A stretch of 64,000 bases of DNA from a virus. The stretch is from positions 13,960-77,959 of the IMG/VR virus record IMGVR_UViG_3300037190_000626. One strand, written 5' to 3'. The position numbers and the translations under genes are program-made. Shown one piece after another: positions 12,999 through 63,437 of this stretch. How positions within the stretch are numbered: position 1 is the first letter of the stretch; every line of letters begins with the position of its first letter. Below the pieces are notes generated by a model that saw only the letters and a program-made list of their open reading frames with translations, was not told the origin of the DNA and made no database searches.

Positions 12999-13027
12999 GT
13001 GAGTAGTGTTGTCAAGGAGGACTATCT

Positions 13028-13288
13028 ATGAAGTACATTCGAACGCAGTTTAGTGTGAACGGAGACGACAGGCTCGTAGCGCAGGAAATACGCGAGACGA
13101 AGAAGGAAACGATGGGCCAGCAAACAAAGGCGGATATCAACAGGGACGTACGGATCGCCCTGTATCGTAAGCGTTACGAGGAGGGACGAGACTTGATGAC
13201 AGGAAAGCCTATTCCCCCGGAAGATCGTGACGATATTATTTACATTAGCGAAATGAGAAGGAAAAGCGAAAATGGTCGACCCAACTGA
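13028..13288 (+). CDS. Hypothetical protein
   Basis: RBS AAGGAGG; RIALYRKRYEEGRDL motif. Confidence 0.55.
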   Translation: MKYIRTQFSVNGDDRLVAQEIRETKKETMGQQTKADINRDVRIALYRKRYEEGRDLMTGKPIPPEDRDDIIYISEMRRKSENGRPN

Positions 13289-13538
13289 AACCTTCCGCAG
13301 AGCGGAAGTTGCTAGAATTAACACAGAAGTAGAGAGTTCAGACAAGGATACTGAACGAGTACGATTGGAAGAAAAACACGGGCAAGTGTGGGATACCACA
13401 GAACTTCAGCAGGATTTTGAAGTGCACGGTTTTGGGGCTCCTTACATTAACGTGACACGTAAGGAAGATAATGCCAAAGGGTCGCTGGAGTTCCAGCATG
13501 CCCCGAGGTTTTATTACGGCTTCCAGTCACACCCGTAA
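13272..13538 (+). CDS. Phage hypothetical protein
   Basis: VWDTTELQQDFEVHGFGAPY...KGSLEFQHAPRFYY. Confidence 0.6.
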   Translation: MVDPTETFRRAEVARINTEVESSDKDTERVRLEEKHGQVWDTTELQQDFEVHGFGAPYINVTRKEDNAKGSLEFQHAPRFYYGFQSHP

Positions 13539-13573
13539 ATACTGGAATTTATTAGAAAGGATTCGAAAACCAG

Positions 13574-13882
13574 ATGGTAGAACGATTTGGGCCTAGCGTT
13601 AGGAGAACACGACGGCCCCCTGACCCTGAGTGGTTAAAGTTTATGTCCACAGACGAGAAAGAGGCTATGCGGTTAGAGGAGTGGATGCTGACTAGTTTAG
13701 CAGACACCGGCCTATCCGTACGTGCTGTCAATTGTCTGGAAGGAAAAGGTATTTTAACCGTGAGTCAGTTATCTCAGCAAACCAATGACGATTTGTTGGG
13801 TATCGTAAACTTTGGGGTACAAACATTGGAACAATGTAAAAGACTTCTGATGAACATAGGAGTTCCCCACAGTCTAAAGTAA
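13574..13882 (+). CDS. Stand-alone RNA polymerase alpha subunit C-terminal domain protein
   Basis: LADTGLSVRAVNCLEGKGILTVSQL...LLGIVNFGVQTLEQC matches the RpoA alpha-CTD consensus LSVRxxNCL...NFGxKSLxE. Confidence 0.85.
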   Translation: MVERFGPSVRRTRRPPDPEWLKFMSTDEKEAMRLEEWMLTSLADTGLSVRAVNCLEGKGILTVSQLSQQTNDDLLGIVNFGVQTLEQCKRLLMNIGVPHSLK

Positions 13883-13904
13883 GAGAAAATTTGTTTAGCA
13901 GATT

Positions 13905-13936
13905 AAGCCTAGGGTGTGTTGCCCTAGGCTTTTTTT
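13905..13936 (+). terminator. Rho-independent terminator
   Basis: AAGCCTAGGG-TGTGTTG-CCCTAGGCTT followed by a T run. Confidence 0.75.
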
Positions 13937-13965
13937 ATGCACATTTGAGACAAGGAAACGAAAAC

Positions 13966-14730
13966 ATGGCTACAGTTACGAAGACTAGCGCAAAGAAGCC
14001 TGCGGCTAACGACCCTTTCGCTAAGACGCGAATTGAGATTCCCGAAGTGAACATGGATATCTTCAAGTGTCGCCTTATTGGCGAGACCCCGTTGGTTATT
14101 CATGCGATGGGTGAAAAGAAGCGTAAGGAAATGCGCGATTTGATGGGCCCCAAGACGGCGGCCTCTAAGGTGCGACCCCCAAAGGATCAGGCGGGTGAGT
14201 ACTTTGACGCAATGTATATTTTGAACAATCAGATGGACAAGGACGGTAAACGCCCTAACCCACATCACAACGATCAGGAATACAGCTACGAAGGTATCTT
14301 CGTTCCGCTGGCCTTTGAAGACGCTACTGCGGTTCATGGTGTGCGTGCTTCCGGGTTCCGGCTCGGTATGGTTCGTGCCGCTAAGAGCTGCGGTGCTGTG
14401 ATGACGGACACTCGCTGTAACATGCGAGTTAGAAGTCCGTTTGGCTCGTTCGTCCCGTTGAGCTTTGAGACGGTTGTCTCCCGGGAAGACCCCGTGAAGT
14501 TGCAGGGCAACAAGACTGACCTGCGTTACCGCCCTGAGTACACGGGCTGGTCAGTTGACATCGAGATTGAGCACATGTCGGACATCATCGGACCAGAGCA
14601 GCTGATTCAGTTGCTGCGTATTTCTGGTCGTACGGTTGGTGTCGGCGAATGGCGTAATGAACGTGGCGGCGAGTTCGGCGCGTTCGATGTGGATCTGGAC
14701 AGCGTCGAGCTGGAAAAGAAAACTCTGTAA
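13966..14730 (+). CDS. RAMP/Cas7-like RNA-binding protein (candidate array-associated effector, Vipr-like)
   Basis: N-terminal strand CRLIGETPLVIH, GVRASGFRLGM helix motif, YRPEYTGWSVDIEIEH, and C-terminal glycine-rich loop GRTVGVGEWRNERGGEFGAFDV. Start moved to ATG 13966, downstream of the terminator and an AAGGA RBS. Confidence 0.75.
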   Translation: MATVTKTSAKKPAANDPFAKTRIEIPEVNMDIFKCRLIGETPLVIHAMGEKKRKEMRDLMGPKTAASKVRPPKDQAGEYFDAMYILNNQMDKDGKRPNPHHNDQEYSYEGIFVPLAFEDATAVHGVRASGFRLGMVRAAKSCGAVMTDTRCNMRVRSPFGSFVPLSFETVVSREDPVKLQGNKTDLRYRPEYTGWSVDIEIEHMSDIIGPEQLIQLLRISGRTVGVGEWRNERGGEFGAFDVDLDSVELEKKTL

Positions 14731-14912
14731 GTAAAGGGGTAAACTATGGAACAACAAGATCACTGGCAAGACAGTATACGCATCTTGTTCGCTTGCCCTT
14801 GGCATAAAAAGATGAGGGCGTGCCAATTGCTCTGCTTGCTTTTTGTAGTGGAGTGTCGGCTTGGTTTTTATGCTTGGAGCAGAAAACTATAACTCACGTT
14901 GAAAATGGTTGT

Positions 14913-14970
14913 CCGGGGGCAGTGGTGTACTAAGTCTTAGACTAAGTCCGAAGCTGCCCCCGGTTTTTAT
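14913..14970 (+). terminator. GC-rich stem-loop with T tail (terminator, attenuator or small structured RNA)
   Basis: CCGGGGGCAG (14913-14922) pairs with CTGCCCCCGG (14954-14963), followed by TTTTTAT. The 31-nt loop is long for a simple terminator. Confidence 0.5.
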
Positions 14971-14988
14971 CTAGAAAGAAGGTAAATT

Positions 14989-15531
14989 ATGAGTAGTGGT
15001 TACGATGTAACTGTTGAATTTAGTGCCAAGCCGACTCGTCCTCTTAGCAATAAGGTGGCTGAAGAGGTTGGTCCTGAGATTCACGCATTGATGCAGAAGA
15101 ACGAGGGGGACGAGCTTACCCCGCATGAGTACTTGGATTGGGTTAAGGCAAACCCAAACAGTAAGAGTTACAGTCAGTTTGAGTGGGAAGATACAATTGC
15201 TGCGAGAAAGTGGCGAGTTCATCAAGCTCGAAATATCATCAATTCGATTGATATTAAGGTGATTGACGAACGCGGCGACGCGGTGAGCGTTCCTGCGTTC
15301 ATTCATATTACGAGGGCAGACTCGGGTGAGGATGCTCGTCAGTTGTATACTTCTTACGAAAACGTTCTGAACGACGAGGAAAGCTCTTCACAGGTGGTAG
15401 CGAGAGCTTGCCGTGATTTCCTGTCGTGGCGTCGTCGTTACCTGCTGCTCCGGGGTAAGCTGCCACTGGCAGACATTTACGATGCGACGGACGTTCTGGC
15501 TCAAGAGCTGGAAGCACCGGAAGAAGATTAA
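14989..15531 (+). CDS. Phage protein, partner of the RAMP-like gene
   Basis: LTPHEYLDWVKANPNS...FEWEDTIAARKWRVHQARNIINSI motif. Lies between the RAMP-like gene and the array. Confidence 0.7.
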   Translation: MSSGYDVTVEFSAKPTRPLSNKVAEEVGPEIHALMQKNEGDELTPHEYLDWVKANPNSKSYSQFEWEDTIAARKWRVHQARNIINSIDIKVIDERGDAVSVPAFIHITRADSGEDARQLYTSYENVLNDEESSSQVVARACRDFLSWRRRYLLLRGKLPLADIYDATDVLAQELEAPEED

Positions 15532-15609
15532 TTTGGGAGCGAATAGTTAGTTTGGAAATCTCGTCAAACAGCGTCGTGGGGACGTAACGCTATTCGTGTG
15601 ACATGGCAT

Positions 15610-16353
15610 GGCAGTCATGGCGAGGTGTGACATGGTGAGCTGGGGCTTGTTAAGGTCTGGCGGGGTTAGGTCAGGTAAGGCAGTCTTGGCAGGGTAAGGT
15701 GTGTTAAGGCACTGCGAGGTGGGCCACGGTTAGGCGAGGAATGGCAGTCATGGTTAGGTTTAGCGAGGCGGGGAGAGGTGCGGCAGGGTGCGGCTGGGCA
15801 GTCATGGCATGGTGCGGTCGGTACCGGCGGGGTCAGGAGGGGTAAGGCTCGGAATGGCAGTCAAGGTGAGGTTAGGCATGGTCTGGAACGTTATGCGCTG
15901 GTTTGGAGTGGTAAGGCAGTCGTGGCGGGGTGGGGCCGGTCTGGGATAGGTCCGGTTGGGTGAGGCAGTCGAGGCGGGGTCTGGTAAGTTGCGTTAAGGC
16001 GGGGAAAGGTGGGGTGGGTTACGGCAGTCAAGGCTAGGTGTGGTGTAGTGTGTCGAGGCGGCGAAAGGTCGGGCAGGGCAGTCATGGTGAGGCGGGGTGT
16101 TGCTGGGTGTGTCTGGTTCGGGGCTGGCGAGGCAGTCATGGCAGGGGGTGGTGGGTAGCGGCGGGGTCAGGAGGGGCAAGGCAGTCATGGTGAGGTGTGA
16201 CACGATGAGGTGTGACATGGTTCGGCAGTCGAGGTCGGGTCTGGTTCGATCTGGCAAGCCGAGGCGTGGTGCGTTGAGGCAGGCATGGAATGGGTGGCAC
16301 GGCGCGGTCAGACCACGGTGAGTAATGGCAAGGCTAGGCAGCCATGGCGCGGA
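15610..16353 (+). repeat. GGCAGTC-delimited GGY/NN periodic array, block 1 (13 complete units; putative non-coding guide RNA array)
   Basis: Delimiters at 15610, 15679, 15743, 15797, 15856, 15915, 15964, 16023, 16077, 16131, 16180, 16224, 16278 (GGCAGGC) and 16337 (GGCAGCC). Spacings are 69,64,54,59,59,49,59,54,54,49,44,54,59, all equal to 9+5n. Confidence 0.92.
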
Positions 16354-16367
16354 TATTAACTTTACCC

Positions 16368-16739
16368 CTACTTTTCGCAGCTGCTGCAACGAGCACTCCA
16401 TCTTGATCTCATCTGAGAGCGAACCGGACGTTCTTGTGCCATAACACGTAGGGCCCGAAACGGCATAGTTGTAACTCTTACTGTGGTTCTCACAGTGGCT
16501 CTAACAAGCGTTCGAACTGGTTGTGCGTCACGGAGCCTCTTTGCGGCATTACGTAAGGGAGATCGGCAACTGCGGCCCTCTGCTGCGACGACAGGTTGCT
16601 TATCGGCTTCTTGCATACTGACAGCACTAACGTATGACACAGTTGACGCTTTGGATGCGTGATCACAATCTTGTGCGTTAACAGAGCTGAAAGAGAGAAC
16701 ACTTACGACAACGGCTGAAGCTAAACACTTTTTAAACAT
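16368..16739 (-). CDS. Secreted small protein between the two array blocks
   Basis: Signal peptide MFKKCLASAVVVSVLSFSSVNA and Arg-rich QPVR/RPVR segments. Confidence 0.65.
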   Translation of the reverse strand: MFKKCLASAVVVSVLSFSSVNAQDCDHASKASTVSYVSAVSMQEADKQPVVAAEGRSCRSPLRNAAKRLRDAQPVRTLVRATVRTTVRVTTMPFRALRVMAQERPVRSQMRSRWSARCSSCEK

Positions 16740-16872
16740 GTCTTTTCCTGTTATTTAAGTGGTAATACGTAATGCTCCTACAAGGGAGCGACAAAATTGT
16801 AAATCTTTAATTGCGACACGGCATCCCCAAACCAGAGGTATTTTTAAAAATACTCCAAAAAAGAAGTGACGA

Positions 16873-17058
16873 GGCAGTCATGGTTAGGTGCGTACTGGTG
16901 AGGTGGGTTCAGGTCAGGCAGGGTGTGGTATGGCAGTCAAGGCGAGGTATGGTCGGGTGAGACATGGTCGGGCTGGGCGAGGCGAGGAATGGCAGTCAGG
17001 GCAAGGTCTGGTTGGGTTTGATTCGGAGGGGCGAGGAGTGGCAGTCGTGGTGCGGTTG
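16873..17058 (+). repeat. GGCAGTC-delimited GGY/NN periodic array, block 2 (3 complete units plus 1 truncated)
   Basis: Delimiters at 16873, 16932, 16991 and 17040; spacings 59, 59, 49. Confidence 0.9.
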
Positions 17059-17062
17059 CTAG

Positions 17063-17428
17063 ACTTAAGCTTTTGACTTAAGCTTGTGAGTCCTTACGTT
17101 AAGTAATATATAAAACAAGGAGGAGTGATGAGACCTGAGTCATTTAGGTCAAAACCATTTATTGATTGTTCTAAGTGGGAATGTTGGAATTGCGGTGCAA
17201 TTCACCATTACATACCTGCTGATTGTCAAAAATGTCGGGTGAAATTTGTCTCCCGACCTCACTGGGGTGTTCCCGAGAAAAATTCGGAGATCTCTGAAGA
17301 GAAGAAAACATCAATATCTTTTGATGAGTTAATATCTGATTTACTGAAAGGACCAGAAGAAGAGTAACTGCTTGATGCCCTGTATATATTATCTATAGGA
17401 CTCACAAGCTTAAGTTAAAAGCTTAAGT
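17063..17428. repeat. 32-bp inverted repeat pair flanking a small ORF
   Basis: ACTTAAGCTTTTGACTTAAGCTTGTGAGTCCT (17063-17094) and AGGACTCACAAGCTTAAGTTAAAAGCTTAAGT (17397-17428), 1 mismatch. Confidence 0.88.
17125..17367 (+). CDS. Small zinc-ribbon protein
   Basis: CWNC...CQKC; RBS AAGGAGG. Confidence 0.6.
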   Translation: MMRPESFRSKPFIDCSKWECWNCGAIHHYIPADCQKCRVKFVSRPHWGVPEKNSEISEEKKTSISFDELISDLLKGPEEE

Positions 17429-17453
17429 AACTCTAAATTCTGGGATTGACGCT

Positions 17454-17843
17454 ATGGGAAAAAGTTACAGGTGGGCAGATGTGGCGGGACAGTTTGTTAC
17501 AGAACTGTATGCCCGGGATGGTGAGCTATATGACGCATATTCCGATAAGAATCTGGATGTGCAGATTGAAGCGGCACTGGAGCATGGTGAGAGCTACGAG
17601 CTTACGATTGAGTTTCGTAGCAGCGGGTACTATGACCCCGGAGTCCTATCAGGGCCCCCGGAGAAGTGTTACCCGCCTGAAGGTGATGATGATCGTGAAA
17701 TGGAAGGCGTGGCATTATCCGCAGAAAACAACAAGGAAGTAGAGCTGACGCATGCTGAACAGGAAGAAATGTTTGAGATTTACAGGGGCGGGATAGAGGA
17801 TGTAGAACTTGAAACGCAAGACGACGACGGGGGTAGATACTAA
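17454..17843 (+). CDS. Acidic phage hypothetical protein
   Basis: YYDPGVLSGPPEKCYPPEG motif recalled from phage ORFs. Confidence 0.6.
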   Translation: MGKSYRWADVAGQFVTELYARDGELYDAYSDKNLDVQIEAALEHGESYELTIEFRSSGYYDPGVLSGPPEKCYPPEGDDDREMEGVALSAENNKEVELTHAEQEEMFEIYRGGIEDVELETQDDDGGRY

Positions 17844-17844
17844 T

Positions 17845-18744
17845 ATGCCTCCGGATTTTGCGATAACGATGACGACCTCTAAACCCTCCTTCCAACGCAT
17901 TGCGGTGGCTAAGGCGTTACAGGAATTAGCGCCTAAGGTTTATATAAGCTCTACTAAAAACAGGGATATGGTTCCCTTTATTCGGCAAGTGCAGAAACGG
18001 TGGAGACATTTCACTGTGACGCTCAAGGAAGCTGATTACGCACCGTTTGACACTAAGAAGTTCGGGTACGCACGTAATTGTGTTCCTGTGCTGGTATCTA
18101 ACCGGTGTGATGCCGGGGAAATTGTACCGTGTCAAATTCCGGTGTGTCCGTTTTGCTGGAGCAGACGTGTAGTAATAAAGGCGTGTAAGTTGCTTGAGGG
18201 GCACAAAAACGACATTGCGAATTGGAAGTGGGGGCACGTGGATTTTGGGGGTGCCTTTAATGACGTGTCGGCATCTGTGAGAGCGGCACATCGGGCTATA
18301 CCTGACTACAGCGGGGTGATTGCGTACACGTACTTGTGGGGCAATTCAGATTCTGAGACTCCCAGCTTTAGTGGCCGGGTAAAGTATCTTGCTGTCGGTG
18401 AGGCTGACCATCCTATCTCGCGAGGGGTACATGAAGTACTTAGTCCGTTCACTAAGGCCAAAGATGCCCCGCGAGCAATTGGACAGGCCTTTGCTTATCC
18501 GGTGCATGTTATGCCGCCGGTAGCCTCTAAGGAGCAGGTAGATGCGAGTGTGTATTGGTGGAACCGATTACGGAAGGCAAGGTTTCGTGCGTTTAGAACG
18601 AGCGGTATTTTTTATCGTATGACGAAGCCAGCAGCGGGAAAGAGTAAGAGCAAGGAGGCCAAGTTTAATGATATTTACAAGAGACTTGAAGTACTTGAAA
18701 ACAAGTTAGGTGTAGCGCCTAACGGGAGGAAAGAAAATGAGTGA
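17845..18744 (+). CDS. Hypothetical protein with Cys motif
   Basis: About 300-aa ORF with CQIPVCPFCW. Confidence 0.55.
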   Translation: MPPDFAITMTTSKPSFQRIAVAKALQELAPKVYISSTKNRDMVPFIRQVQKRWRHFTVTLKEADYAPFDTKKFGYARNCVPVLVSNRCDAGEIVPCQIPVCPFCWSRRVVIKACKLLEGHKNDIANWKWGHVDFGGAFNDVSASVRAAHRAIPDYSGVIAYTYLWGNSDSETPSFSGRVKYLAVGEADHPISRGVHEVLSPFTKAKDAPRAIGQAFAYPVHVMPPVASKEQVDASVYWWNRLRKARFRAFRTSGIFYRMTKPAAGKSKSKEAKFNDIYKRLEVLENKLGVAPNGRKENE

Positions 18745-30281: not shown

Positions 30282-31114
30282 TCAATGCTCGTACACACCG
30301 AAAGCAGCCAATGCCGGGGACGGAGTCCAAGTCAGTTCGATTGTCTAATCAACTGGCGCCAGCCGAGGAGCGGCTAAGCGACGACTTAAAGAAAACGTAC
30401 ACGCTGGAACGTCGTCTTTTGGACGAGCGGTGTGGTCGTAGTCGTGGTCGTCCTTACAGTCCGTCCCCACGATACGATGGGGAGGATACAAGGGCAACGA
30501 TTGAGGATATTCAACGAAAGCCGGAGAACACGTGGGTGAAAGTGGTGCGGGAACTTTGGCCCGCGAATGTTCACCCGTGTATTTATGTCCGGACTATTTT
30601 TCGCGGTATAGGCGGGACTGCTATGGCACCGCCGTATCCTCATCAACTTTTGAGTAAGAAGTGGAAAGAATTTTTCCACGCGGAGAGCGCCAGATTAATT
30701 GATGAAATTCCTGCGGGGTTTTCCCGGCAATCAGAATTTTCTGCCTCCTCCATCTTGCGAAGTCAGCGTATATTGGGGTATGACTTACAACAGTCTGTGT
30801 ACTATTTGTTGACGGACCGGCTGGCTCCTTTGACTTCGCTTTACCGCCATAGTTTAGCGAAGTCAATGTTACGGGAGCCAAACTTGTCGAAGATTGATCG
30901 TCCTGCATTGTTCGAGGGTGTGGCAGCCAGAACAGAGCGGCAGGCAGTCATTCAGTACACGCAATTCAGTGCTCAATACGCAGAGCACTGGAGGTTGATT
31001 CTTCCGGATGGCTTCCGGGAGACGGCGGAAAGGATTTACGGCGGATTATTGACGGTGTGTTTAAATGAGGGAGAGTTCGATGTCAAAACAGCGGTCACGG
31101 TTGACCGCTCGTGA
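30278..31114 (+). CDS. Hypothetical protein in the replication operon
   Basis: 278-aa ORF with an ATGA overlap. Confidence 0.6.
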   Translation: MINARTHRKQPMPGTESKSVRLSNQLAPAEERLSDDLKKTYTLERRLLDERCGRSRGRPYSPSPRYDGEDTRATIEDIQRKPENTWVKVVRELWPANVHPCIYVRTIFRGIGGTAMAPPYPHQLLSKKWKEFFHAESARLIDEIPAGFSRQSEFSASSILRSQRILGYDLQQSVYYLLTDRLAPLTSLYRHSLAKSMLREPNLSKIDRPALFEGVAARTERQAVIQYTQFSAQYAEHWRLILPDGFRETAERIYGGLLTVCLNEGEFDVKTAVTVDRS

Positions 31115-32768
31115 AATCAGACAATGCTTAAAGGTATTGTGTAGAAGTACGGAGCTATTTTCGTTATTTCACGAGCAACTTGAAGTTAACCACTTCAAAG
31201 GTTTTGAGATCTATCAGCTCGTATACCGTGTGCTAACTAATTTTTATGGGGAGCATACTGAGCTACCCGGTCCCGGTGTCGTGTGGACCGAGTGTGACTC
31301 TATCCTTGAACAAATGCCAGAGCATTTTACAGGGGGAGAGCTTGAGGATCTTGAAGAATTTTTAAATGACACATACGAATCTGAAGAGTGGACTGGCGTT
31401 GTTGAGGATAAACAGCAAGTCCGCTGGGCGCTTAATAAGGTTCGTGATTTTATTGAAGAGCGCGTAATTACGGACTGTGTGGCTCCCTTATTGGGTGGCC
31501 CTACGGTTCCGATAGACTTACCTGACTTTTTGGTTCAGATGGGTGACCGTGTCACACAGATACAATCCATCGAGGAGCAGGAAGAAGGTAATTTAACATT
31601 CGGCAGTGACTGGGATAAGCGGGCTGGACTTCCTATACGTTCTACAGGCTTGTCGTATCTCGATGAGTTCATGTCTGGCGGTCACTGTGTTGGGGAAGTG
31701 TATGGCATTTTAGCGCCATACGGTACTTGTAAGACCACGTTGGCTACTATGCTGGCGTGTAATGAAGCGAGACATGCGCAGCAGGAGTATGACCCAACAC
31801 GTCCAGATCGGTGCGGTATTTCGGTGATTGTTTCTTATGAGGCTCCTAAGCAGCCTGAGTTACATCACCGTTTTTTAATGTACCTTGCACAGATACGCCG
31901 AGATTCTTTGGAGGCTATGGGTGCTGATGGACTTAGCAGCCTAGGCGGTGACGTGGATAACCCGTTACCTTACGAGAAAGAATTATTTTATCAGCATATT
32001 CAAGATCAGATGTTTATACCGGAAGCCACACGAGCACTTCAGTGTGTGGACTTACTAAATAAACATTGTCTTGTGTTGGATATGACTGGTAATGATCCCA
32101 CTTACCCCGGTGCGGGCGGTGGGGGGCTTAAGGAAATAAGTCGACGGATTCGACTTGAGCTTGCAAGGCGAGGCCCTGAGTACTATCTCACTTCAGTGGT
32201 GATTGACTACGTAGGAGCTTTGGTTAAGCGAGCGATGGCTGTATCTAATGAGGATAGCAACGAGCTTCGCCATCACATTACTAAAGTTCCGTTACTCGCG
32301 AGGAACGAGATTGCGACGGAATTTAAATGTCCGGTGTGGTTAGTACACCAGCTTTCTGGTCAAGCAAATTCAGTGCTTAAACCGGGGGCTTCGTTGCACC
32401 ATACCGATTCTGCGGAGTCTAAGAGCTTCGCGGAAAACTTAGATTTTGCCTTCGTGATAGGTAATCTTAACGCGGATAATATGGGACAGATAGCTTGCAC
32501 TAAGCACCGACGCGCAGCGAACGCACCACCTAAAGTGATTCAGGTGGATGGTATGTTCAATACTGTGTTGGCGCGAGATGACATGTTTGTCGATTCTCAT
32601 ACACGTGCCATTTTGGATAAAGATACTGCTAGCACTGCGGGTGTCGTTTCGTCACCCAGCTCAGTAGATTATTCCGCAAATGACTTAATGATGGATGACA
32701 ATGAAATGACATGGGAACAAGAAAATGAGTCAAATGACCCCGGAGGCGACGAATTCAGTTTTGAATAG
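31080..32768 (+). CDS. DnaB-like replicative helicase
   Basis: STGLSYLDEFMSGG, Walker A APYGTCKTT, VVIDY, VWLVHQL, KHR; adjacent to the primase. Confidence 0.8.
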   Translation: MSKQRSRLTAREIRQCLKVLCRSTELFSLFHEQLEVNHFKGFEIYQLVYRVLTNFYGEHTELPGPGVVWTECDSILEQMPEHFTGGELEDLEEFLNDTYESEEWTGVVEDKQQVRWALNKVRDFIEERVITDCVAPLLGGPTVPIDLPDFLVQMGDRVTQIQSIEEQEEGNLTFGSDWDKRAGLPIRSTGLSYLDEFMSGGHCVGEVYGILAPYGTCKTTLATMLACNEARHAQQEYDPTRPDRCGISVIVSYEAPKQPELHHRFLMYLAQIRRDSLEAMGADGLSSLGGDVDNPLPYEKELFYQHIQDQMFIPEATRALQCVDLLNKHCLVLDMTGNDPTYPGAGGGGLKEISRRIRLELARRGPEYYLTSVVIDYVGALVKRAMAVSNEDSNELRHHITKVPLLARNEIATEFKCPVWLVHQLSGQANSVLKPGASLHHTDSAESKSFAENLDFAFVIGNLNADNMGQIACTKHRRAANAPPKVIQVDGMFNTVLARDDMFVDSHTRAILDKDTASTAGVVSSPSSVDYSANDLMMDDNEMTWEQENESNDPGGDEFSFE

Positions 32769-49342: not shown

Positions 49343-49927
49343 ATGAAATCTAGTATTGAGATTGTGGTTGGTTATTCGCTGGCACCGAGGGAGGTGAAGC
49401 CGGGGTCGACGGCGAAGAAGACGGCGGGGGAGAAATCTTTAGGTTTATCTCCTTACGTTAGTCAAGTGGCAGATGTCCATATGATCATCCCGGCGATTGA
49501 GAAAGCTATAACTTATCGTACAGCTAGTCGCGGGGAGGAAAGTGGCAAGTTGAGCGCACTGGGGGCCACGGCTTCTTTTATTAAGAAGCATTCCTACGAC
49601 GTGGGTTTATCGCCCGTCTTCGTGGGCTTTGATATAAATGCTTTTCTGCGGTTTGTCGGTTTTGATTGCAGTTTGTCACATACATTTTTCCCGCACACCT
49701 ACTGGGGAAGTACGGATCACTCCGCTGAACTTCACGATTATTTGGGTGTACGATCGGCGACGGATGTGAAATCTGCTTTAAGCTACTTCTCTAGTGGGTT
49801 TAGCGGTGAAGACCTAGAGAAGTACATTGAGCTAGTGAAGGGGTGGGAGAGTCATACAGACGCTGAGCGGGATGCCCAGTTGGCGTTTTTGTTCGGCTCG
49901 ATTTTTTGGTTATGGTCTACTCCTTAG
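49343..49927 (+). CDS. Hypothetical protein
   Basis: 194-aa ORF with RBS. Confidence 0.55.
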   Translation: MKSSIEIVVGYSLAPREVKPGSTAKKTAGEKSLGLSPYVSQVADVHMIIPAIEKAITYRTASRGEESGKLSALGATASFIKKHSYDVGLSPVFVGFDINAFLRFVGFDCSLSHTFFPHTYWGSTDHSAELHDYLGVRSATDVKSALSYFSSGFSGEDLEKYIELVKGWESHTDAERDAQLAFLFGSIFWLWSTP

Positions 49928-49937
49928 AGGTTGCAGT

Positions 49938-50615
49938 ATGGCGGATCATGTAGGTGGACCACCGGAAAGTAAATTTGTAAAGTTTACGCCTTACAAGGTC
50001 AATGTACGTCCAGTGGAGTTTGGAGGGACGCCCCCTTCGTTGGCTGTTTTTCCTGAGTGGGTGTGGTATACCCCGGCCCCTGCCTTTTTATGGGGAGGGT
50101 TGGGACATGCTATCCTTTCGGAACTACAACATGAATTAGGGTTTGAGTACTATCAGGCCACGTTTAGAGTCAGTTTATTTTCCGGGTTTGATGTGCAGGG
50201 GGATGCCTTCTGGAATAATACTTTGTGGGCCTGTAAGCAGACGGAGTGGGAGCCTTTCAAGGAAGCTTTGCTGGGCGTTATGAACGTAGATATGGAGAAC
50301 GGGTTGATTGTTAAATACGGACTACAGGAGCTCAGCGTGTACGACCCTGTTGCTGTGCAGAATAATTCGGTGATAACTCCGGACACGCCGACGCTTGATG
50401 TTGTCGCGTTTGGAGTGATGTCCAACAAATCAACAATTGCCTTTGATGTTACTAGCGGGGCAGTTGAGCGTCCGCATGTTTACACAGTTACTCCTGATCC
50501 GGCATTTGTAGAGATGGCTGACATGCTTCTTTCAGGTCAACAGGAGTTAGGCGGAGTGGTTGATAACTTTAAGAATGTAAAGATAGATGGCTCGAAGTAT
50601 CCGGGTCAGAATTAG
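49938..50615 (+). CDS. Hypothetical protein
   Basis: ORF with likely ATG at 49938. Confidence 0.55.
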   Translation: MADHVGGPPESKFVKFTPYKVNVRPVEFGGTPPSLAVFPEWVWYTPAPAFLWGGLGHAILSELQHELGFEYYQATFRVSLFSGFDVQGDAFWNNTLWACKQTEWEPFKEALLGVMNVDMENGLIVKYGLQELSVYDPVAVQNNSVITPDTPTLDVVAFGVMSNKSTIAFDVTSGAVERPHVYTVTPDPAFVEMADMLLSGQQELGGVVDNFKNVKIDGSKYPGQN

Positions 50616-50645
50616 TAACTTTAAGTACAGGACACGGGCAGCCTA

Positions 50646-50963
50646 ATGGAACATCCAATTTTTAGTGTGAGAGAAGAATTGGTACCTCAAGCTGTAGTGA
50701 GTGTTAAGGTATTTGAAGGAGAGACCTCTGCCGCAGTAGAGGAGGCGATTAACAAGTGGATTTCTGAAACACAAAACTTAGTGGTATGTCCGGGCCCCGT
50801 TTCTGCGGGCGAGGGTTCGGCGCGTATAGCTATTACTTACGTGAAAGCGAATATTAATAATGACCCCGAAAGAAGACGGAAAATGGCCGAAGCTCCTGAG
50901 CTCGATGCCGCATCAGGTCGTAAACGCACTAGAGGCGAAAGCGACGGCGGCAGAATCGCTTGA
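50646..50963 (+). CDS. Hypothetical protein
   Basis: VKVFEG...VEEAINKWI small alpha/beta motif. Confidence 0.5.
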   Translation: MEHPIFSVREELVPQAVVSVKVFEGETSAAVEEAINKWISETQNLVVCPGPVSAGEGSARIAITYVKANINNDPERRRKMAEAPELDAASGRKRTRGESDGGRIA

Positions 50964-51459
50964 TGAGGCTGAGTATAATTACCGGGCAACTGTGGGCGCT
51001 ATGCCGGGAGCGGTACAGGAACGCTTGGCCAGTCCTGCGAAAGAGGTGCGTGTTGAGGTTAGTACGCAACCCGCGTGGTGCTTATGTGAGATGCCCGAGG
51101 GGGACTATTCCCGAGTACGTGTTTTCTCTGATTTAGAAAATTTAGTAAATCATATCGGACGCCTTGAAGGGGAGGAAGTTTCTGTTTGGGCTTTTTATGG
51201 TACCCCCCTTCGACTTACACGTCCGGATGGCACTGGTCAGCGCTACTTGTTGGTGTCGGATCAGGAGGTAGTTATCGTACCCAAGGGAAGTGATTCTATG
51301 CTTCAGTTTGCAGAAAACCCAACACTGCCGGAGGTGCAAGAGGATGGTTGGCTGGGGGATGAGGCATTTACACAAGGCAATGCCGAGAATTACTACGCTT
51401 ACGGAGCCCCTAAGGATGACCAATTTGATGACGCAGGGGATGCGGAAGAAGAGGATTAG
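50860..51459 (+). CDS. Hypothetical protein
   Basis: 199-aa acidic ORF. Confidence 0.5.
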   Translation: MTPKEDGKWPKLLSSMPHQVVNALEAKATAAESLDEAEYNYRATVGAMPGAVQERLASPAKEVRVEVSTQPAWCLCEMPEGDYSRVRVFSDLENLVNHIGRLEGEEVSVWAFYGTPLRLTRPDGTGQRYLLVSDQEVVIVPKGSDSMLQFAENPTLPEVQEDGWLGDEAFTQGNAENYYAYGAPKDDQFDDAGDAEEED

Positions 51460-51507
51460 TATGTTACACTAAGTGTGACTTTTTTTTAGCCATCAAGAGA
51501 AAATACC

Positions 51508-52485
51508 ATGCCGGATAACAAGACAGGACTTGTAACTGCACACACTCCGGACGACACCGCCTACCATCCGGGATTAAACGCATATGGCACCACGATTCCG
51601 CGATCGGCAAAAGACGGTGTGTCTCTTGGGTTTGATCCACATAAGCCCGGCAAGATAATCATCGATCCCGATATGGACGATGGAAATTTAGAAGTAGATT
51701 TCTCAAAGTTTGTTGAAGTAGACGATTTAAATAATAAAATTCAACAAGCTGTGGGGGCCTCTCCTGATGGGGACGGGGCTTTTCGGGCGTTTAGTAACAT
51801 TGCCGCCGAGCTGGCGGATGGCGGGAAAAAGGCATCTCCCTCCACTCCGCAGCAGGTTTTAAAGAAGGAGCCGGTTAACATGAATAAGCCTAGGTTGAAA
51901 AAACCACAACCACAAGTGAATCCCGTTGTGGCGGATAATCCGTCTGCGGTTGGTGCGGACCAAGCTAATGATATGCTTCATGCTATGTTAGCGCAGCAAT
52001 CAACTTTACTTGGTCAGCTCACATCGCAGGTGGCTGACCTTCACAAGGAGCGGGAGTCTCCCGTACAATTGACGGAAGACGAAGCGAGCACACCAGAAGC
52101 CGAGGATGAGGTACAGGAAGAAATGCCGGATACGATAACATCACCCAACGAATGTTTGGAAATGCCTTTCTTAGGTATCCCAGCTCCGATAAAGCCGACA
52201 AAGGAAATCTATTTTGAAATGCCGCAAGCGGGTACAATGGGGGCTCGGTATCATGAGGTGATTGAAGGCGGTAGCTGTATAGCCCTCGTATATGACACTC
52301 GTTACGAGGAGGGCTATCAGTGGATTCCTCCATCGCTTGGTGATGCAAAGATTAAGATGACGATTCCTAAGGATAAAAAGACGTACACTTGTTCGAGCCT
52401 TGGGATTCATTTTCATATTGGAGTTTTAGACGTGGTTGTGTTGTTTAAGCACGACGACGATGACGCAATTAAGGAGAATTACTAA
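51508..52485 (+). CDS. Hypothetical protein
   Basis: 325-aa ORF following a T-rich intergenic gap. Confidence 0.55.
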   Translation: MPDNKTGLVTAHTPDDTAYHPGLNAYGTTIPRSAKDGVSLGFDPHKPGKIIIDPDMDDGNLEVDFSKFVEVDDLNNKIQQAVGASPDGDGAFRAFSNIAAELADGGKKASPSTPQQVLKKEPVNMNKPRLKKPQPQVNPVVADNPSAVGADQANDMLHAMLAQQSTLLGQLTSQVADLHKERESPVQLTEDEASTPEAEDEVQEEMPDTITSPNECLEMPFLGIPAPIKPTKEIYFEMPQAGTMGARYHEVIEGGSCIALVYDTRYEEGYQWIPPSLGDAKIKMTIPKDKKTYTCSSLGIHFHIGVLDVVVLFKHDDDDAIKENY

Positions 52486-52718
52486 TGTCAATGGAAAAAC
52501 GTGGTGTTATTAACGGGGATACTCCTCTGGGGACTTGTTGTGGTGGTGGTTGCAAAGGCCCCAAAGGCGAAGCGGGGGTTGATGGCGATCAGTTACTGCT
52601 AAAGTTCGGGGAAGCGTCGCAGCCGGAGACAGAGAAAGAAGCAGATGACATGGCAGATAGTACCGTATCACGGGCTGTCGATGCTGTAGCAGAGGAGACA
52701 CAACAGGATGGCGAATAG
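52485..52718 (+). CDS. Small hypothetical protein
   Basis: MEKRGVI motif; TAATG coupling. Confidence 0.5.
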   Translation: MSMEKRGVINGDTPLGTCCGGGCKGPKGEAGVDGDQLLLKFGEASQPETEKEADDMADSTVSRAVDAVAEETQQDGE

Positions 52719-52956
52719 TCGACGCGAGTTAGCTTACGAGGCGTTGTCCGATAATTACACGGCTCAACGTTCTGAAGCGCTCCATAATTTATTGGTTTAT
52801 TTTGAAAACCCGGCGGGCATTGGCGAGCACCCTGAGTTACAAGAAGAGATGCGGGGCCAACTTGAAAAATTAGCTAATGCCGAAGACGCACTTTCGTGCC
52901 TTAAAGCACACGAAAATTTGTTTAAGGGGTTGGGTAGCGGACATCACGGAGGATAG
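52708..52956 (+). CDS. Small phage protein
   Basis: YFENPAGIGEHPEL motif recalled from marine phage proteins. Confidence 0.65.
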   Translation: MANSRRELAYEALSDNYTAQRSEALHNLLVYFENPAGIGEHPELQEEMRGQLEKLANAEDALSCLKAHENLFKGLGSGHHGG

Positions 52957-52958
52957 TC

Positions 52959-54899
52959 ATGTCAGGGTCTAATTTTTGGAAGCATTCTGTACCCGGGGGA
53001 TCGGAAGTATTTCCGGACCCCTTCTTGGACGTTGCGTCTCAGAACATGCCGGATACCATCCGGAATGCTCTTTCGTGGTCTGAGTATATCTGGAATGTTT
53101 TCGGCACATACCGGATGTCTATGGAGCGAGTTGTTTCGTATTTTCTCACGGACATCGAGATAGCGGGGGACGTTTCCGATGACGAGAAAAGCAAGTACAC
53201 CGAATTCTTAGATGATTCTTTGCACGCAATGGATTTCCTCCAGAACATGATGCGTGACCGCATGTGTTACGGGAACGCCTTCGGTAGTATTCTGGTTCCT
53301 TTCCGACGTTACCTCATGTCACCTAAGACAGGAGACATGTACCCACTTCATGTGGTGTACAAAAACGCACAATTTGATTTCAAGTGGTCACCCGAGTTTG
53401 AGTTTATTGCTACATGCCCCAAGACAAAGTGGCGTGGTGCGTGGAAGGTTGTGGATAAGCCTGAGGACGAAGAAGAGCACATCTCTTTAAAGCGATGGAG
53501 TCCCCACGAAATAGAGATACTTCACGACCCGTATACAGACGAAATGTCTTACTTGTGGCGTATCCCAGAAGACTACAAGCGTCTTGTTCGAAAAGGTCAC
53601 TTGTTTCATTTAGAGCGTGCGAGTGAGGAAGTTCTTAAGGCGATTAAGAATAACCATATGTTCCGGTTTAACGAGGACGCTATTTTTCACATGAAGGAGC
53701 CTACGCTTGCTGGTATTCGAAACCGTGGGTGGGGCCTTCCTCGTAGCTTGGTGAATTTCCGTCAGATTTACTACGTGCAGGTTCTTCGCAGATATAACGA
53801 AGCGATTGCTCTGGACTATGTTATCCCTTTCCGTCTGATTACGCCTGCTCCTCGGGGCGGCGGAAACGCGGGAGGCATGGCATCCCAAGACCCTATGATG
53901 TTTTATAATTCCGGGGATTTCAAGTCACAAGTTAAGGGGATGATGAACAGACGTCGCCAAGACCCGGCCAGCTGGCAGATTCTTCCATTCCCGGTGAATT
54001 ATCAGATGCTAGGAGGCGATGCGAATCAGTTAGCGCCTAAGGACTTGATGGATCAGGGGATGGAGACTCTTTTGAATGAGTCTGGCACGCCTGTGGAGTT
54101 GTACAAGGGTACGCTTTCTTTGCAGGCTGCGCCGGTGGCGTTACGTTTGTTTGAGAGTACGTGGCGTAACATGGTGCAGGAAGCTAACAGCCTTATTCAA
54201 TGGATACTTAAGGGTATTTCTCAGTTGATGAGTTGGGAACCTGTTGACGGTTCTCTAACCCGCGTGACGATTGCTGACGACATGAACAAGCAGATGGCTG
54301 CTCTCCAGTTGATGATGGGTCAGCAGGTATCCGGCACTACGGGACTCAAGGCCATTGGCTACGATTGGGATACCGAGCAACGTCTCTTATCCGAAGAAGC
54401 CCAAAAGCAGCAAGAGCTGCAAGCTCGAACTCAGGAGGAGATGGAGCAGGCAGGATTTGCTGCTGAAGTTGCTAAGGGTATGAATCCGATGGCTCCACAG
54501 CCTCAGGGCGGTCAACAAGGTGCTATGGGTGCTCCTGCTTCTATGGCTGGGGCTGTTGCTGGCGGCCAAGGCGGTGGCGGTAATCCTGTCGGTCCTGATG
54601 GGCAATCTGCTCTGGATGCGGGTATGACTCCTGTGAGTGCGTACATTGGCACGATGGGCCCAGATGTGCCGATAACGCCGAATGACTTGCAGGCAGCGGC
54701 AGAGTCGTTAGCTCAGCAGTTGTTGGGTCTACCTGAGGGTCAGAAAGATTCTCAGCTCAGGGAGCTTAAGCAATTTAATCCTACGCTTCACGCTTTGGTG
54801 CGTGAAAAGATGGACGACATACGTAGGAGTGCCAGAATGCAGGGAGGCGCAATGCTGATGGGTCAGCAAGGACAGGGCGGCGGTGCAGCTCCTATGTAA
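52959..54899 (+). CDS. Probable portal protein
   Basis: 646 aa with RDRMCYGNAF, FHMKEPTLAG...WGLP, PVNYQMLGG layout and a Q/G/A-rich tail, typical of large-phage portals. Confidence 0.65.
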   Translation: MSGSNFWKHSVPGGSEVFPDPFLDVASQNMPDTIRNALSWSEYIWNVFGTYRMSMERVVSYFLTDIEIAGDVSDDEKSKYTEFLDDSLHAMDFLQNMMRDRMCYGNAFGSILVPFRRYLMSPKTGDMYPLHVVYKNAQFDFKWSPEFEFIATCPKTKWRGAWKVVDKPEDEEEHISLKRWSPHEIEILHDPYTDEMSYLWRIPEDYKRLVRKGHLFHLERASEEVLKAIKNNHMFRFNEDAIFHMKEPTLAGIRNRGWGLPRSLVNFRQIYYVQVLRRYNEAIALDYVIPFRLITPAPRGGGNAGGMASQDPMMFYNSGDFKSQVKGMMNRRRQDPASWQILPFPVNYQMLGGDANQLAPKDLMDQGMETLLNESGTPVELYKGTLSLQAAPVALRLFESTWRNMVQEANSLIQWILKGISQLMSWEPVDGSLTRVTIADDMNKQMAALQLMMGQQVSGTTGLKAIGYDWDTEQRLLSEEAQKQQELQARTQEEMEQAGFAAEVAKGMNPMAPQPQGGQQGAMGAPASMAGAVAGGQGGGGNPVGPDGQSALDAGMTPVSAYIGTMGPDVPITPNDLQAAAESLAQQLLGLPEGQKDSQLRELKQFNPTLHALVREKMDDIRRSARMQGGAMLMGQQGQGGGAAPM

Positions 54900-54908
54900 G
54901 GGCGCTTT

Positions 54909-55709
54909 ATGACTCGTATAGGCTTCATATGTCCCACTCACCGTGAGGGCGAATTACACGAATACACGGTTGCAGCTCTCCGGTCGTTTTTTCAGACAAC
55001 GGCGGACGGGGTAGCTATTGTCGTGGATGACGCCTCCCCGGGTTGGGAGCCGATCCACGAGAGCCACCTGAAAATGCAGGCCGAGTATAAAGGTCAGGAG
55101 TGTTTTGTTTACAGGTTTGACGAGTGGGGCGGTCTTACACGCAGTTGGAATCAAGGTCTTAAGATTGCCCGCGATTTTGGATGTGATTATGTTATTTGCG
55201 GTAACAACGACATAATCTTTCCCAGCCTGTGGTATCAGGGTCTTTTACACGCATTAACGCACGGTTATTCGATGGTTGGCCCTGTATCTAACGCTCCGGG
55301 CGTTACTGCAAAACACCATCAGGAAGTGTGGCGTTATTTCCCCGACTACCAGCTAGATGATTCGGATATATACATTAACCGAGTTCAAGCGTACCTCTTA
55401 GAGAAACATCTCGGGGCTGTTTTAGACTGCCCGGTTAACGGATTTTTTCAGATGGCCGCACTGGATACGTGGTGGAAGGGACGTTATGACGATAATGACG
55501 TTTATCGACCTCGCAACGATCTAACGAGTCGAGGACATAAAAATGCTACTCCTCTTATGACGTTGAACGAGGATGAATTACAAGGTAGGTGGAGGAAGTT
55601 GGGATTTCGTATGGGGATAGTGCCTAGTAGTTTTATTTTCCACTATCGGGCCGTGACTCGTGGCAATAAATTTCGCAAGGGAAGATGGTACAGGAAGACA
55701 TCCACATAA
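54909..55709 (+). CDS. GT2-family glycosyltransferase
   Basis: IVVDDAS, GLTRSWNQG, NNDII, VGPVSN, FIFHY. Confidence 0.85.
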   Translation: MTRIGFICPTHREGELHEYTVAALRSFFQTTADGVAIVVDDASPGWEPIHESHLKMQAEYKGQECFVYRFDEWGGLTRSWNQGLKIARDFGCDYVICGNNDIIFPSLWYQGLLHALTHGYSMVGPVSNAPGVTAKHHQEVWRYFPDYQLDDSDIYINRVQAYLLEKHLGAVLDCPVNGFFQMAALDTWWKGRYDDNDVYRPRNDLTSRGHKNATPLMTLNEDELQGRWRKLGFRMGIVPSSFIFHYRAVTRGNKFRKGRWYRKTST

Positions 55710-56392
55710 TGACACCGCAGGTAATTGTTTATAGTTGTGTAACAGCTGGTTATGATGATTTAGCTGGCACGTTGTTTAAAGGGGCACCTATCCCCGAAGA
55801 CAATGTGAAGTTTGTGTTATTCACAGATAGATCTCCGTCGGGTGATACGGGAGTGTGGGAGGTGGGGCCATTAAAATGGCATCATGCCACTTGTCCCCGT
55901 CGTAGCGCCCGTTACCACAAATGTATGTCGCAGCGTGTTTTGCCTTCTCATGACTATAGTGTGTGGGTAGACGGCAGCCAGATTTTTAAAGGCGTGAAGG
56001 TGTGGGAGGACATAGTAAAACCGCAGGTGATATCGGGCTACGATGTCGCTACTTTTAAGCATCCCTTACGTCAGTGTGCTTATCAGGAGGAGAGAGCTTG
56101 CGAGAGGCATAGAAAAGATAATGTCAGTGTTATGCGTTCTCAGATGGATAGATATCGGGCAGAGGGCTATCCGCCCTACAATGGCATGGTAGAGACAGCG
56201 TGCGTCATACGAGCAAACACAGACCCTGTTCACGAGTTTAACGCTGCGTGGTGGGATGAACTTACAAAGGATAGTTTTCGCGATCAGTTGAGCTTCAACT
56301 ACGTTTGCTGGCGATTAGGGTTTCAGTACGGTCATATCCCCGGACACCGGGAGGAGTCATGCTTTTTCAATTTTGTCTCACATAAGCGATGA
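55709..56392 (+). CDS. DUF616-like (TOD1/MUCI70) glycosyltransferase-like protein
   Basis: VYSCVTAGYD, FTD, SVWVDGS, HPLRQCAYQE, RDQLSFNYV. Confidence 0.8.
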   Translation: MTPQVIVYSCVTAGYDDLAGTLFKGAPIPEDNVKFVLFTDRSPSGDTGVWEVGPLKWHHATCPRRSARYHKCMSQRVLPSHDYSVWVDGSQIFKGVKVWEDIVKPQVISGYDVATFKHPLRQCAYQEERACERHRKDNVSVMRSQMDRYRAEGYPPYNGMVETACVIRANTDPVHEFNAAWWDELTKDSFRDQLSFNYVCWRLGFQYGHIPGHREESCFFNFVSHKR

Positions 56393-56401
56393 TTTATTTA
56401 T

Positions 56402-57472
56402 ATGTACACTTTAGGTATTTGTGCCCCTTATCGTCGCTGCGAGGCTACTTTGTCAGCCATACGTTTGGCGGATTTAGGTCGAGAACTGGCTATGAGTGTC
56501 AAGTTCTTAGCTGCTGGTCCGGTCCAGAAGGGTGTGGATCATTACTGGGATAAGTATGTACGCAGAGATCAAGGGGACCGACCTTACCGCTGGGCTAGTG
56601 GGTGCACCCACATAGTTTGGTTTTCTAGCGGGGAGTCTACTTACCAGAAGTCTTTTTTGGTGTCCCCGGGTGCGAGGCACTGGTACGTTCCCCTATGTCA
56701 TGACATGGAGAAGTCTGATCCGTTTTCTCCGCAGTCCTCCGGTCGTATCGTGTGCCCGTCAAAGCAAGCTAGGGACGAACTTCTGTCGCGTACTTACGGT
56801 GACGCCCCATCGCAACACAAGAAAATTAGTTGGTGTCTGTGGGACAGCGGGCTAGATGCCGTAGAAAGCGCATACGGGGCAGAGACGGATGATTTATCCA
56901 TTTATGTTCCTGTGTCTCCTCACGTTATAGACGAGACTGGTCTTTTAGTTCTTAAGGCTATATTGGACCTTTTAAAACTGTTTCCCCGTGTGAAGTTTAC
57001 AGTTGATTGCGGTAAGTCGTGGTCCAAGAAGTCTAGGCGGTTTATTCGTGACCTGTTAAAGAACCACGGAGATCGGCTGACTTTTAATTACTCTCTTTCC
57101 CCTTTGTCACATGTTCGTCACATGCACAATAATGACTGGACATGGATACCGAGTACCCGCGTAGACACGGGCATCGTGGCACAACGTAGTCTTGCATGTG
57201 GGACTCCCGTTATCGTTTACGATATAAGCCCGTATTCGGAATTTATTACTAACGAAGTGAATGGTCTACTCGTGGAATGTGATATATACTCTAACTGGGT
57301 GGGAGCGCCTGTGGCGGGACCCCGTTTCGTATCGGTGGTGAGTACTTTGGCGAGGGCTATCACTGGAGAAAGGGAGCTGTATTCGAGATGCCAGAAGAAG
57401 ACTACGACCCGAGAGAAGAACCACTCGAAACAATTTCGTCTCTTTTGGGCGAAAGAGTGGGACGTCGTGTGA
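56402..57472 (+). CDS. GT-B (GT4-like) glycosyltransferase
   Basis: IPSTRVDTGIVAQRSLACGTPVI...EFITNEVNGLLV, a degenerate EX7E motif. Confidence 0.65.
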   Translation: MYTLGICAPYRRCEATLSAIRLADLGRELAMSVKFLAAGPVQKGVDHYWDKYVRRDQGDRPYRWASGCTHIVWFSSGESTYQKSFLVSPGARHWYVPLCHDMEKSDPFSPQSSGRIVCPSKQARDELLSRTYGDAPSQHKKISWCLWDSGLDAVESAYGAETDDLSIYVPVSPHVIDETGLLVLKAILDLLKLFPRVKFTVDCGKSWSKKSRRFIRDLLKNHGDRLTFNYSLSPLSHVRHMHNNDWTWIPSTRVDTGIVAQRSLACGTPVIVYDISPYSEFITNEVNGLLVECDIYSNWVGAPVAGPRFVSVVSTLARAITGERELYSRCQKKTTTREKNHSKQFRLFWAKEWDVV

Positions 57473-58059: not shown

Positions 58060-58301
58060 ATACAGGCTATGGAAGGCATGTTATGTACGAAAAGATCGCA
58101 CTTTTAGGTAAGTTGGCCGCTCGTAAAAAGTATCATCGGCCCTCGATGGTACCACCACGACCGTCCTCCCATTCGCGCACGTTCAAAGTTAAAGACAAGA
58201 AGGAAAAGAAGAAGTCCCGGAAGGCGTTGCATGAGGCAAGTGGCAATGTGCAGTCACCGCACCGATATGGTCGGAAGGTGAGTAAACGCAAGGCAAGTTA
58301 A

Positions 58302-60209: not shown

Positions 60210-60366
60210 GGAAGAGTTGAAGAGGAACGTGCCGACTACGGCCAGTGCCTTTAACGGATACGTAGTGCTTACCTTGGCTGACGGCACAAGGACACAATTA
60301 GGAGAAGGTGAGGAAGGTGCCCTGCAACCCGGAGCAATCGAGCCCACCAACAGTATTCAGATATGA
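60013..60366 (+). CDS. Hypothetical protein
   Basis: AAGGAG RBS before ATG 60013; overlaps the previous ORF. Confidence 0.45.
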   Translation: MSTDETRPTPTPSLSRLSPLPGEDLHVAPDLFQVLTARYQQENAPKQDTQHLETLKAAQPLLDFFKEELKRNVPTTASAFNGYVVLTLADGTRTQLGEGEEGALQPGAIEPTNSIQI

Positions 60367-63358: not shown

Positions 63359-63437
63359 GGTAATCCCTATTGGTCGTGGCCGCTGTAACAGGCTAGAATT
63401 ACAAGATGCAAACGGTCTTTTTTCCCGGAGCGCACGG

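Follow-up and report, generated by a model that had tools for sequence, protein, structure and literature searches.

Next to the early and replication genes of an uncultured 78-kb marine phage, on their upstream side, lies a tandem array whose units follow the pattern GGCAGTC-NN-(GGYNN)n, raising the question of what a repeat might do when it keeps a five-nucleotide phase and leaves two bases of every five free to vary. A sequence-only reading of this DNA had proposed that selection acts on a code held in the NN dinucleotides. Such a code is the published mechanism of VIPR. First described in 2026, VIPR is a CRISPR-like system by which phages silence genes under the guidance of RNA (10.64898/2026.04.26.720920). 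It combines a phage-borne Vipr protein, a Cas7-related minimal RAMP with an RRM core, a glycine-rich loop and a thumb, with guide RNAs, the vrRNAs, built of GGY triplets and NN dinucleotides (10.64898/2026.04.26.720920, 10.64898/2026.04.26.720927, 10.64898/2026.10.15.759431). The NN bases of a vrRNA pair with double-stranded DNA, skipping every third target base (10.64898/2026.04.26.720920, 10.64898/2026.04.26.720927). Here, we find that a Vipr gene adjoins the array and that the array is very probably the vrRNA guide array of a VIPR system. The proposed code is real but already published, and the locus adds a further example of VIPR.

All coordinates are positions in the window, the 64-kb stretch of DNA that was analysed, which is the 3' 64 kb of a virus contig of 77,959 bp with a GC content of 48.5%. 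Judged by its sequence, the phage is without a close cultured relative, and blastn of window positions 15400-17500 against 50,697 phage records returned no match. The phage DNA polymerase has less than 30% identity to that of any cultured phage, and the majority of ORFs in the last 15 kb (49343-63998) have no PHROG or close phage match. Six genes of nucleotide- or DNA-modification type are spread along the genome (5364-5996, 7614-8144, 10720-11283, 37276-37965, 55685-56392 and 61121-61759), namely two 2OG-Fe(II) oxygenase-like genes, a dCTP deaminase, a thymidylate kinase-like gene, a glycosyltransferase and a DNA methyltransferase-like gene, which together hint at modified DNA bases.

The array occupies 15610-16353 and 16873-17060 (Table 1). 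We counted 16 GGCAGTC heads on the plus strand between 15610 and 17040 (12 in 15610-16224 and four in 16873-17040), against five on the plus strand and one on the minus strand in the remainder of the window, and block 1 holds two further, degenerate heads, GGCAGGC at 16278 and GGCAGCC at 16337. Head-to-head spacings are 69, 64, 54, 59, 59, 49, 59, 54, 54, 49, 44, 54 and 59 nt in block 1 (13 spacings, degenerate heads included) and 59, 59 and 49 nt in block 2. All 16 fit the 9+5n rule put forward in the sequence-only reading, for which chance would be 0.2^16. Information content over 131 pentamers, taken from the 14 closed units whose heads read exactly GGCAGTC, came to 1.71, 1.10, 0.49, 0.14 and 0.08 bits at pentamer positions 1 to 5, placing the variation in the NN dinucleotides as that reading had predicted. 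Triplets are, as it had also observed, chiefly GGT (57 of 131) and GGC (32), with GGA (12), GTT (8) and others as variants; 28 of the 131 pentamers begin with neither GGY nor GGA. Unit 13 (16278-16336) had been described as carrying an internal -1/+1 slip that leaves the total length unchanged. The slips do cancel and the length is kept, but they amount to +1, -2 and +1, and there is no single -1/+1 pair.

Across the whole 77,959-bp genome, 5-periodic GG is confined to the array and to the plus strand. The sole invariant element is the 7-nt head (9 nt with the NN that follows), and unit lengths step by five. This is not the form of a CRISPR array, that is, identical direct repeats of 23-50 bp separated by unique spacers with cas genes alongside. 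Tandem Repeats Finder caught only 10-nt fragments of the array, with no CRISPR-like repeat in its output, so that standard repeat tools miss such a locus. The string GTGTGACA(T/C)GG occurs in the leader (15593-15609), in guide g01 (15625-15640) and twice in guide g11 (16194-16222), a recurrence which suggests that units arise by copying parts of other units. Directly after the array, the two copies of a 32-bp imperfect inverted repeat (GACTTAAGCTT.., doubled; 17062-17093 and 17398-17429) flank a small Cys-rich ORF (17125-17367). Opposite-strand joints at 17063-17094 looked like an inversion but are explained by the second copy of this inverted repeat, and give no evidence of one.

Table 1. Features of the putative VIPR locus, in window coordinates.
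Feature	Position	Strand	Description or basis
vipr, 254 aa, RAMP/Cas7-like, candidate GGY-binding protein	13966..14730	+	phmmer, profile, AF2/Foldseek
vap candidate, 180 aa	14989..15531	+	phrog_15946; tblastn homologues; predicted winged-helix-like core
Leader, vap candidate to first head	15532..15609	+	3' end is a partial unit (..GTGT GACAT GGCAT)
Probable vrRNA array, block 1	15610..16353	+	12 GGCAGTC heads and 2 degenerate heads; 13 guides, 9-14 pentamers
Guide g04	15801..15860	+	NN reads [IM][IM]ARPG[HQ]G[NK]S[IM]; candidate target, DnaB-like helicase Walker A
Guide g10	16135..16184	+	NN reads ..VGAG[HQ]G[NK][SR], second P-loop-like string
Non-repeat segment splitting the array	16354..16872	.	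contains minus-strand ORF 16368-16739
ORF in array interruption	16368..16739	-	123 aa, signal-peptide-like start
Probable vrRNA array, block 2	16873..17060	+	4 heads; 3 closed guides and a truncated last unit
Guide g16	16936..16995	+	candidate target, podovirus-like tail gene; 21/22 positions under 1-nt skip

We examined the co-oriented gene 880 bp upstream of the array. A phmmer comparison of its product with the SUSP1 Vipr protein (PDB 36pp_D) gave E 1.8e-4, and a profile built from 37 homologues, found in a search of 5.8 billion proteins, matched the same chain at E 3.8e-13, with the sequence alignment limited to the C-terminal 60-100 residues. SUSP1 Vipr residues R138, D177, W178 and R179 hold two guanines and a pyrimidine (10.64898/2026.04.26.720927). 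In the alignment, the thumb residue R138 falls on R189 (within YRP) and the G-loop residues D177/W178/R179 fall on E228/W229/R230 (within GVGEWR); R189, E228 and R230 are invariant across the 37-homologue family and W229 is almost so. The AF2 model of the protein has a pLDDT of 87.7, and the top Foldseek matches to it are Csm3, type VII Cas7, Cmr4 and Cas7-11 chains (best 6xn3_F, 3.6e-6). Alignment and model together identify the product of 13966-14730 as a Vipr-family protein with a predicted Cas7/Csm3 fold in which the predicted GGY-contact residues are kept. Searches of Pfam and NCBIfam gave no family for either this protein or the vap candidate.

The vipr start codon (ATG at 13966) comes after a terminator-like hairpin at 13905-13931. 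Directly upstream of vipr, a plus-strand gene for a 102-aa protein (13574-13882) encodes a bacterial RNA polymerase alpha C-terminal domain (PF03118, E 2.7e-13, and NCBIfam rpoA models), which is kept in five close marine relatives and absent from wider Vipr loci. This protein could serve the phage by acting as a decoy in host transcription or by modulating it.

Next to vipr lies a candidate accessory (vap) gene. Homologues of its 180-aa product were found by tblastn in 30 loci (5 metagenome, 25 IMG/VR), adjoining vipr in those checked. Foldseek returned nothing below 1e-3 for its AF2 model (pLDDT 82.7), while VIA-align matched residues ~20-128 to winged-helix proteins such as PadR, Fur, Fox and MecI at a middling Z of 6-7. 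The winged-helix-like prediction fits the vap genes of VIPR types II, VI and VII, which are predicted DNA binders (10.64898/2026.04.26.720920). The locus has the minimal VIPR composition of vipr and one vap without a CRISPR array or other cas genes, and no PHROG match to other cas or adaptation genes appeared among the 61 ORFs scanned. It also has what is expected of vrRNA genes, which are intergenic tandem GGY/NN pentamers beside vipr, four units or more and typically 9-16; here, 16 units of 9-14 pentamers lie on the vipr strand. We found no sigma-70-like promoter in the leader (15532-15609); a sigma-70 scan of 13400-17600 gave one weak minus-strand site, below the shuffle count.

The boundaries between guides follow from how the head is read. 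Taken as GGCA[G]TCNN, GGCAG closes one tract and its last G opens the next pentamer, GTCNN, a 1-nt overlap under which the tracts on either side keep a perfect 5-nt register in 16 of 16 units. With the head read as an overlap, no pentamer is left incomplete in any unit, and the array resolves into 16 guides of 9-14 repeats in two blocks; published vrRNAs have 9-16 (10.64898/2026.04.26.720920). The commonest junction among relatives, GGCA[G]GCNN, likewise has a 1-nt overlap. Staggered arrays, in which vrRNAs come from 1-nt overlapping positions, are described in the legend to fig. S18 of the first VIPR report (10.64898/2026.04.26.720920), and we infer that the array has this published architecture, the match of the junction motif (GGCAG followed by TC or GC) being judged by the text of that legend. 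The available text of the report gives small-RNA sequencing confirmation for the hammerhead and single-guide forms and states none for the staggered form (10.64898/2026.04.26.720920).

Other vrRNA layouts are not what we see here. The invariant ~40-nt 3' tail of type II, with its hairpin/pseudoknot, is absent, and just GGCAGTC and 2 nt stand between tracts. An Rfam search of 13000-18000 at E up to 1 found no hammerhead ribozymes between vrRNAs, and no match above threshold at all, its lone row being a chance-level flavivirus hairpin on the minus strand. Folding of the array RNA revealed no structure beyond shuffled sequences (z -0.20). An unstructured RNA without an Rfam match fits an extended, protein-bound guide.

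To place the locus among relatives, we scanned IMG/VR with the DNA pattern GGCAGTCNNGG(N3GG)3 alone and obtained at least 119 loci, 80 of them with full flanks. A Vipr-family gene is present in 36 of the 119 among the matches listed, and gene and array are on the same strand in all 19 listed loci that have a Vipr match and three or more heads. The 76 guides of 27 listed IMG/VR loci follow the same grammar, with 1.56, 1.35, 0.69, 0.04 and 0.01 bits at the five positions and 8-17 repeats. Only two NN strings among 92 guides are common to loci, both within one near-identical locus pair. A search for Vipr-based related loci in viral contigs gave no relative, and Vipr relatives (64-100% identity) were found on nine short marine metagenome contigs, most of which end at or before the array. 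On one of these marine contigs the first guide is identical and the sequence breaks off at the second head; another runs through vipr and the 180-aa gene to a GGCAGTC at the extreme end. The locus occurred in marine/seawater DNA runs only, and all 11 runs listed are DNA.

Contigs from four of these runs, belonging to three studies, have vipr and vap genes 95-99% identical to those here and arrays that differ. One variant drops exactly the 69-nt unit 1, others swap units for other pentamer-phased sequence, and some put g17 ahead of g05. All joints between array variants on the marine contigs fall at heads, and guides turn over between strains at these points. In contigs of two runs, g08 leads to g17 through one different guide and the 519-bp segment 16354-16872 is missing, so that this segment is a strain-specific interruption of one array. 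The 123-aa ORF within it has no family in PHROGs, Pfam, NCBIfam or the protein atlas, where its best feature score was 0.75, and may not be a real gene.

We searched for targets by the published rule, joining the NN dinucleotides by one wildcard base and scanning both strands. In the phage's own genome, the best matches equalled those of shuffled guides at all gap lengths; according to the available text on published VIPR systems, these also have no self-target (10.64898/2026.04.26.720920). The sequence-only reading had looked to gapped matches in excess of shuffled controls as a mark of the code. There was no such excess in the phage genome, where no guide rose above shuffles, nor in 1.1 Mb of locus sequence, where the 92 guides gave nothing above shuffles at gaps of 0, 1 and 2 and only the trivial array self-match at gap 3, so that a 1-nt skip did no better there than other gap lengths. 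Exact 1-nt-skip searches with the guide bodies of g16, g04, g05 and g15 found no match in viral contigs, and those with the bodies of g01 and g02 found none in 185,579 species genomes.

Two guides nonetheless gave partial matches in coding sequence. A 16-base core of g04 occurs in 78 loci; at 64 of these it falls within a frame-0 ORF that stays open for 130 aa or more, versus 16 and 13 in the other frames, and 32 of the 32 scanned are DnaB-like helicases of phrog_19. Translated, the matched codons read ARPG[HQ]GKS, which is the Walker A motif. At 19 loci the match extends over the two dinucleotides upstream and so reaches 20 of 22 positions, the maximum. Guide g10 has a segment in common with g04. 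Among the 76 guides of the other listed loci, we found no P-loop reading (shuffling mean 0.1). The phage's own DnaB-like helicase (phrog_19; 31065-32768, plus strand) has an unusual Walker A, APYGTCKT, where the g04-matched helicases have ARPGxGK[ST], and is not matched by g04. A helicase or Walker target is not mentioned in the available text of two of the VIPR reports (10.64898/2026.04.26.720920, 10.64898/2026.10.15.759431).

For g16, a 16-base core occurs in 17 loci with nine distinct sequences. One of these sequences, present on three contigs, matches at 21 of 22 informative positions, in frame (KVIREMRWEEI), within a tail protein gene of phrog_376; the extension of the match has a marginal p of ~0.04 after allowing for the nine distinct core sequences. 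The virus concerned is podovirus-like, with Pelagibacter phage EXVC031P as its nearest cultured relative (44.9% protein identity), and at the homologous site EXVC031P has a different sequence from which the target is absent. No other guides converged on the five candidate target viruses scanned. We regard the Walker A region of DnaB-like helicases, for g04, and the podovirus-like tail gene, for g16, as candidate targets, that is, as leads drawn from sequence matches. In both, the base skipped is the wobble base of the codon, a point that the sequence-only reading had proposed to check.

With these data in hand, the vrRNA reading can be weighed against a role of the array as DNA, be it as binding sites for the winged-helix protein or another, as an origin built on a G-rich R-loop or G-quadruplex, or as repeats flanking the genome ends. 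Phage T7 has short-repeat arrays beside its terminal repeat. The array studied here is strongly strand-asymmetric and G-rich, stands just upstream of early/replication genes and forms two blocks around a unique segment, and arrays of this kind mark the ends of many contigs, both IMG/VR and marine. Assembly, however, is expected to break off at repeats, and guides that are almost wholly different between loci (two shared strings among 92) are unlike binding sites. The tight, co-oriented linkage to Vipr, seen in 36 listed loci, and the exact published GGY/NN grammar explain the array fully, making it extremely improbable that it functions as DNA. T7-like terminal repeat arrays, an R-loop origin, G-quadruplex DNA and a Rho-loading C-rich minus strand were each dropped on the Vipr linkage.

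A VIPR array might also be partly or wholly decayed, with many units no longer working. The degenerate heads at 16278 and 16337, the slips within unit 13 and the pentamers lacking both GGY and GGA starts would agree with this, as would the split of the array by an inserted segment, with block 2 behind a convergent ORF, and the lack of an exact target for six guide bodies (g01, g02, g04, g05, g15 and g16). Against it, vipr is intact with its contact residues conserved, the phase is held in 16 of 16 spacings, the heads are where units turn over from strain to strain, and two guides have in-frame coding matches; working vrRNAs, moreover, are often internally degenerate (10.64898/2026.04.26.720920). 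We hold a decayed array to be very unlikely, and partial decay of some units to be possible.

As a vrRNA array, the locus would operate as follows. The plus strand of the array would be transcribed in the direction of vipr and vap. In the sequence, the units are delimited by the one-base frame slip, with no long structured tail. By analogy with SUSP1, where both steps are known, one Vipr protomer would bind each GGY triplet and present the neighbouring NN, and the NN string would pair with double-stranded DNA reading NNxNNx, silencing transcription at the target. Each guide may target a coding sequence in some competing virus, setting the skipped base at the codon wobble position, and because of that placement synonymous changes would presumably give no escape.

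A more speculative extension, which we think rather unlikely, is that VIPR guides are aimed at protein motifs and not at the sequence of one rival. Because the code would read the first two positions of a codon and ignore the third, g04 could silence the Walker A regions of DnaB-like helicase genes in many unrelated competitors at once, as perhaps could its paralogue g10, with the phage's own helicase escaping through its divergent APYGTCKT. In the same proposal, the 1-nt slip at GGCA[G]TC, without tail or ribozyme, may be enough to terminate a Vipr filament and begin another, perhaps with no cutting of the RNA.

The discovery of VIPR is only months old (2026). The experiments described in the available text worked with type II systems of E. 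coli and Pseudomonas and with expressed loci of types III and V (10.64898/2026.04.26.720920). The staggered form is described in the same report, the available text of which gives no RNA-sequencing confirmation of it, and the locus is a well-delimited natural example of this form, from a marine phage that lacks close relatives in culture. It offers 16 guides, two target leads and a set of guides that visibly changes from one ocean sample to another. Should the helicase-motif guide prove real, the wobble-skipping code would be usable for broad, motif-level targeting of essential genes, and such guides would bear on how VIPR targets are chosen and on the use of VIPR as a programmable repressor.

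The closest known counterparts of the locus are the published staggered VIPR arrays (10.64898/2026.04.26.720920). Both have a Vipr RAMP gene with an adjacent accessory gene in a viral genome, and both have GGY/NN guides (9-16 repeats in the published ones) in which a 1-nt overlap marks the next start; here, the 16 guides stand in two blocks parted by an insertion. With the type II VIPR of SUSP1, which consists of Vipr, vap1 and four vrRNAs (PDB 36pp), the locus shares a homologous Vipr, the GGY-contact residues and the NN code, as well as a downstream accessory gene, predicted to be DNA-binding in SUSP1 and modelled as winged-helix-like here. The two differ in the length of Vipr (254 aa here, 202 aa in SUSP1) and in the form of the guide: SUSP1 vrRNAs are ~100 nt long with an invariant ~40-nt 3' pseudoknot tail, whereas the invariant part here is 9 nt and unstructured. 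More distantly, the model of Vipr has the protein fold of the Cas7 backbone of Class 1 CRISPR systems (Csm3, Cmr4, type VII Cas7), and VIPR and the Cas7 backbone both place a protomer at each fixed step along the guide RNA, whose bases are flipped periodically (10.64898/2026.04.26.720927). In contrast to Class 1 CRISPR, the locus has no CRISPR repeats, and where a CRISPR guide is a continuous spacer, a VIPR guide is a string of gapped dinucleotides.
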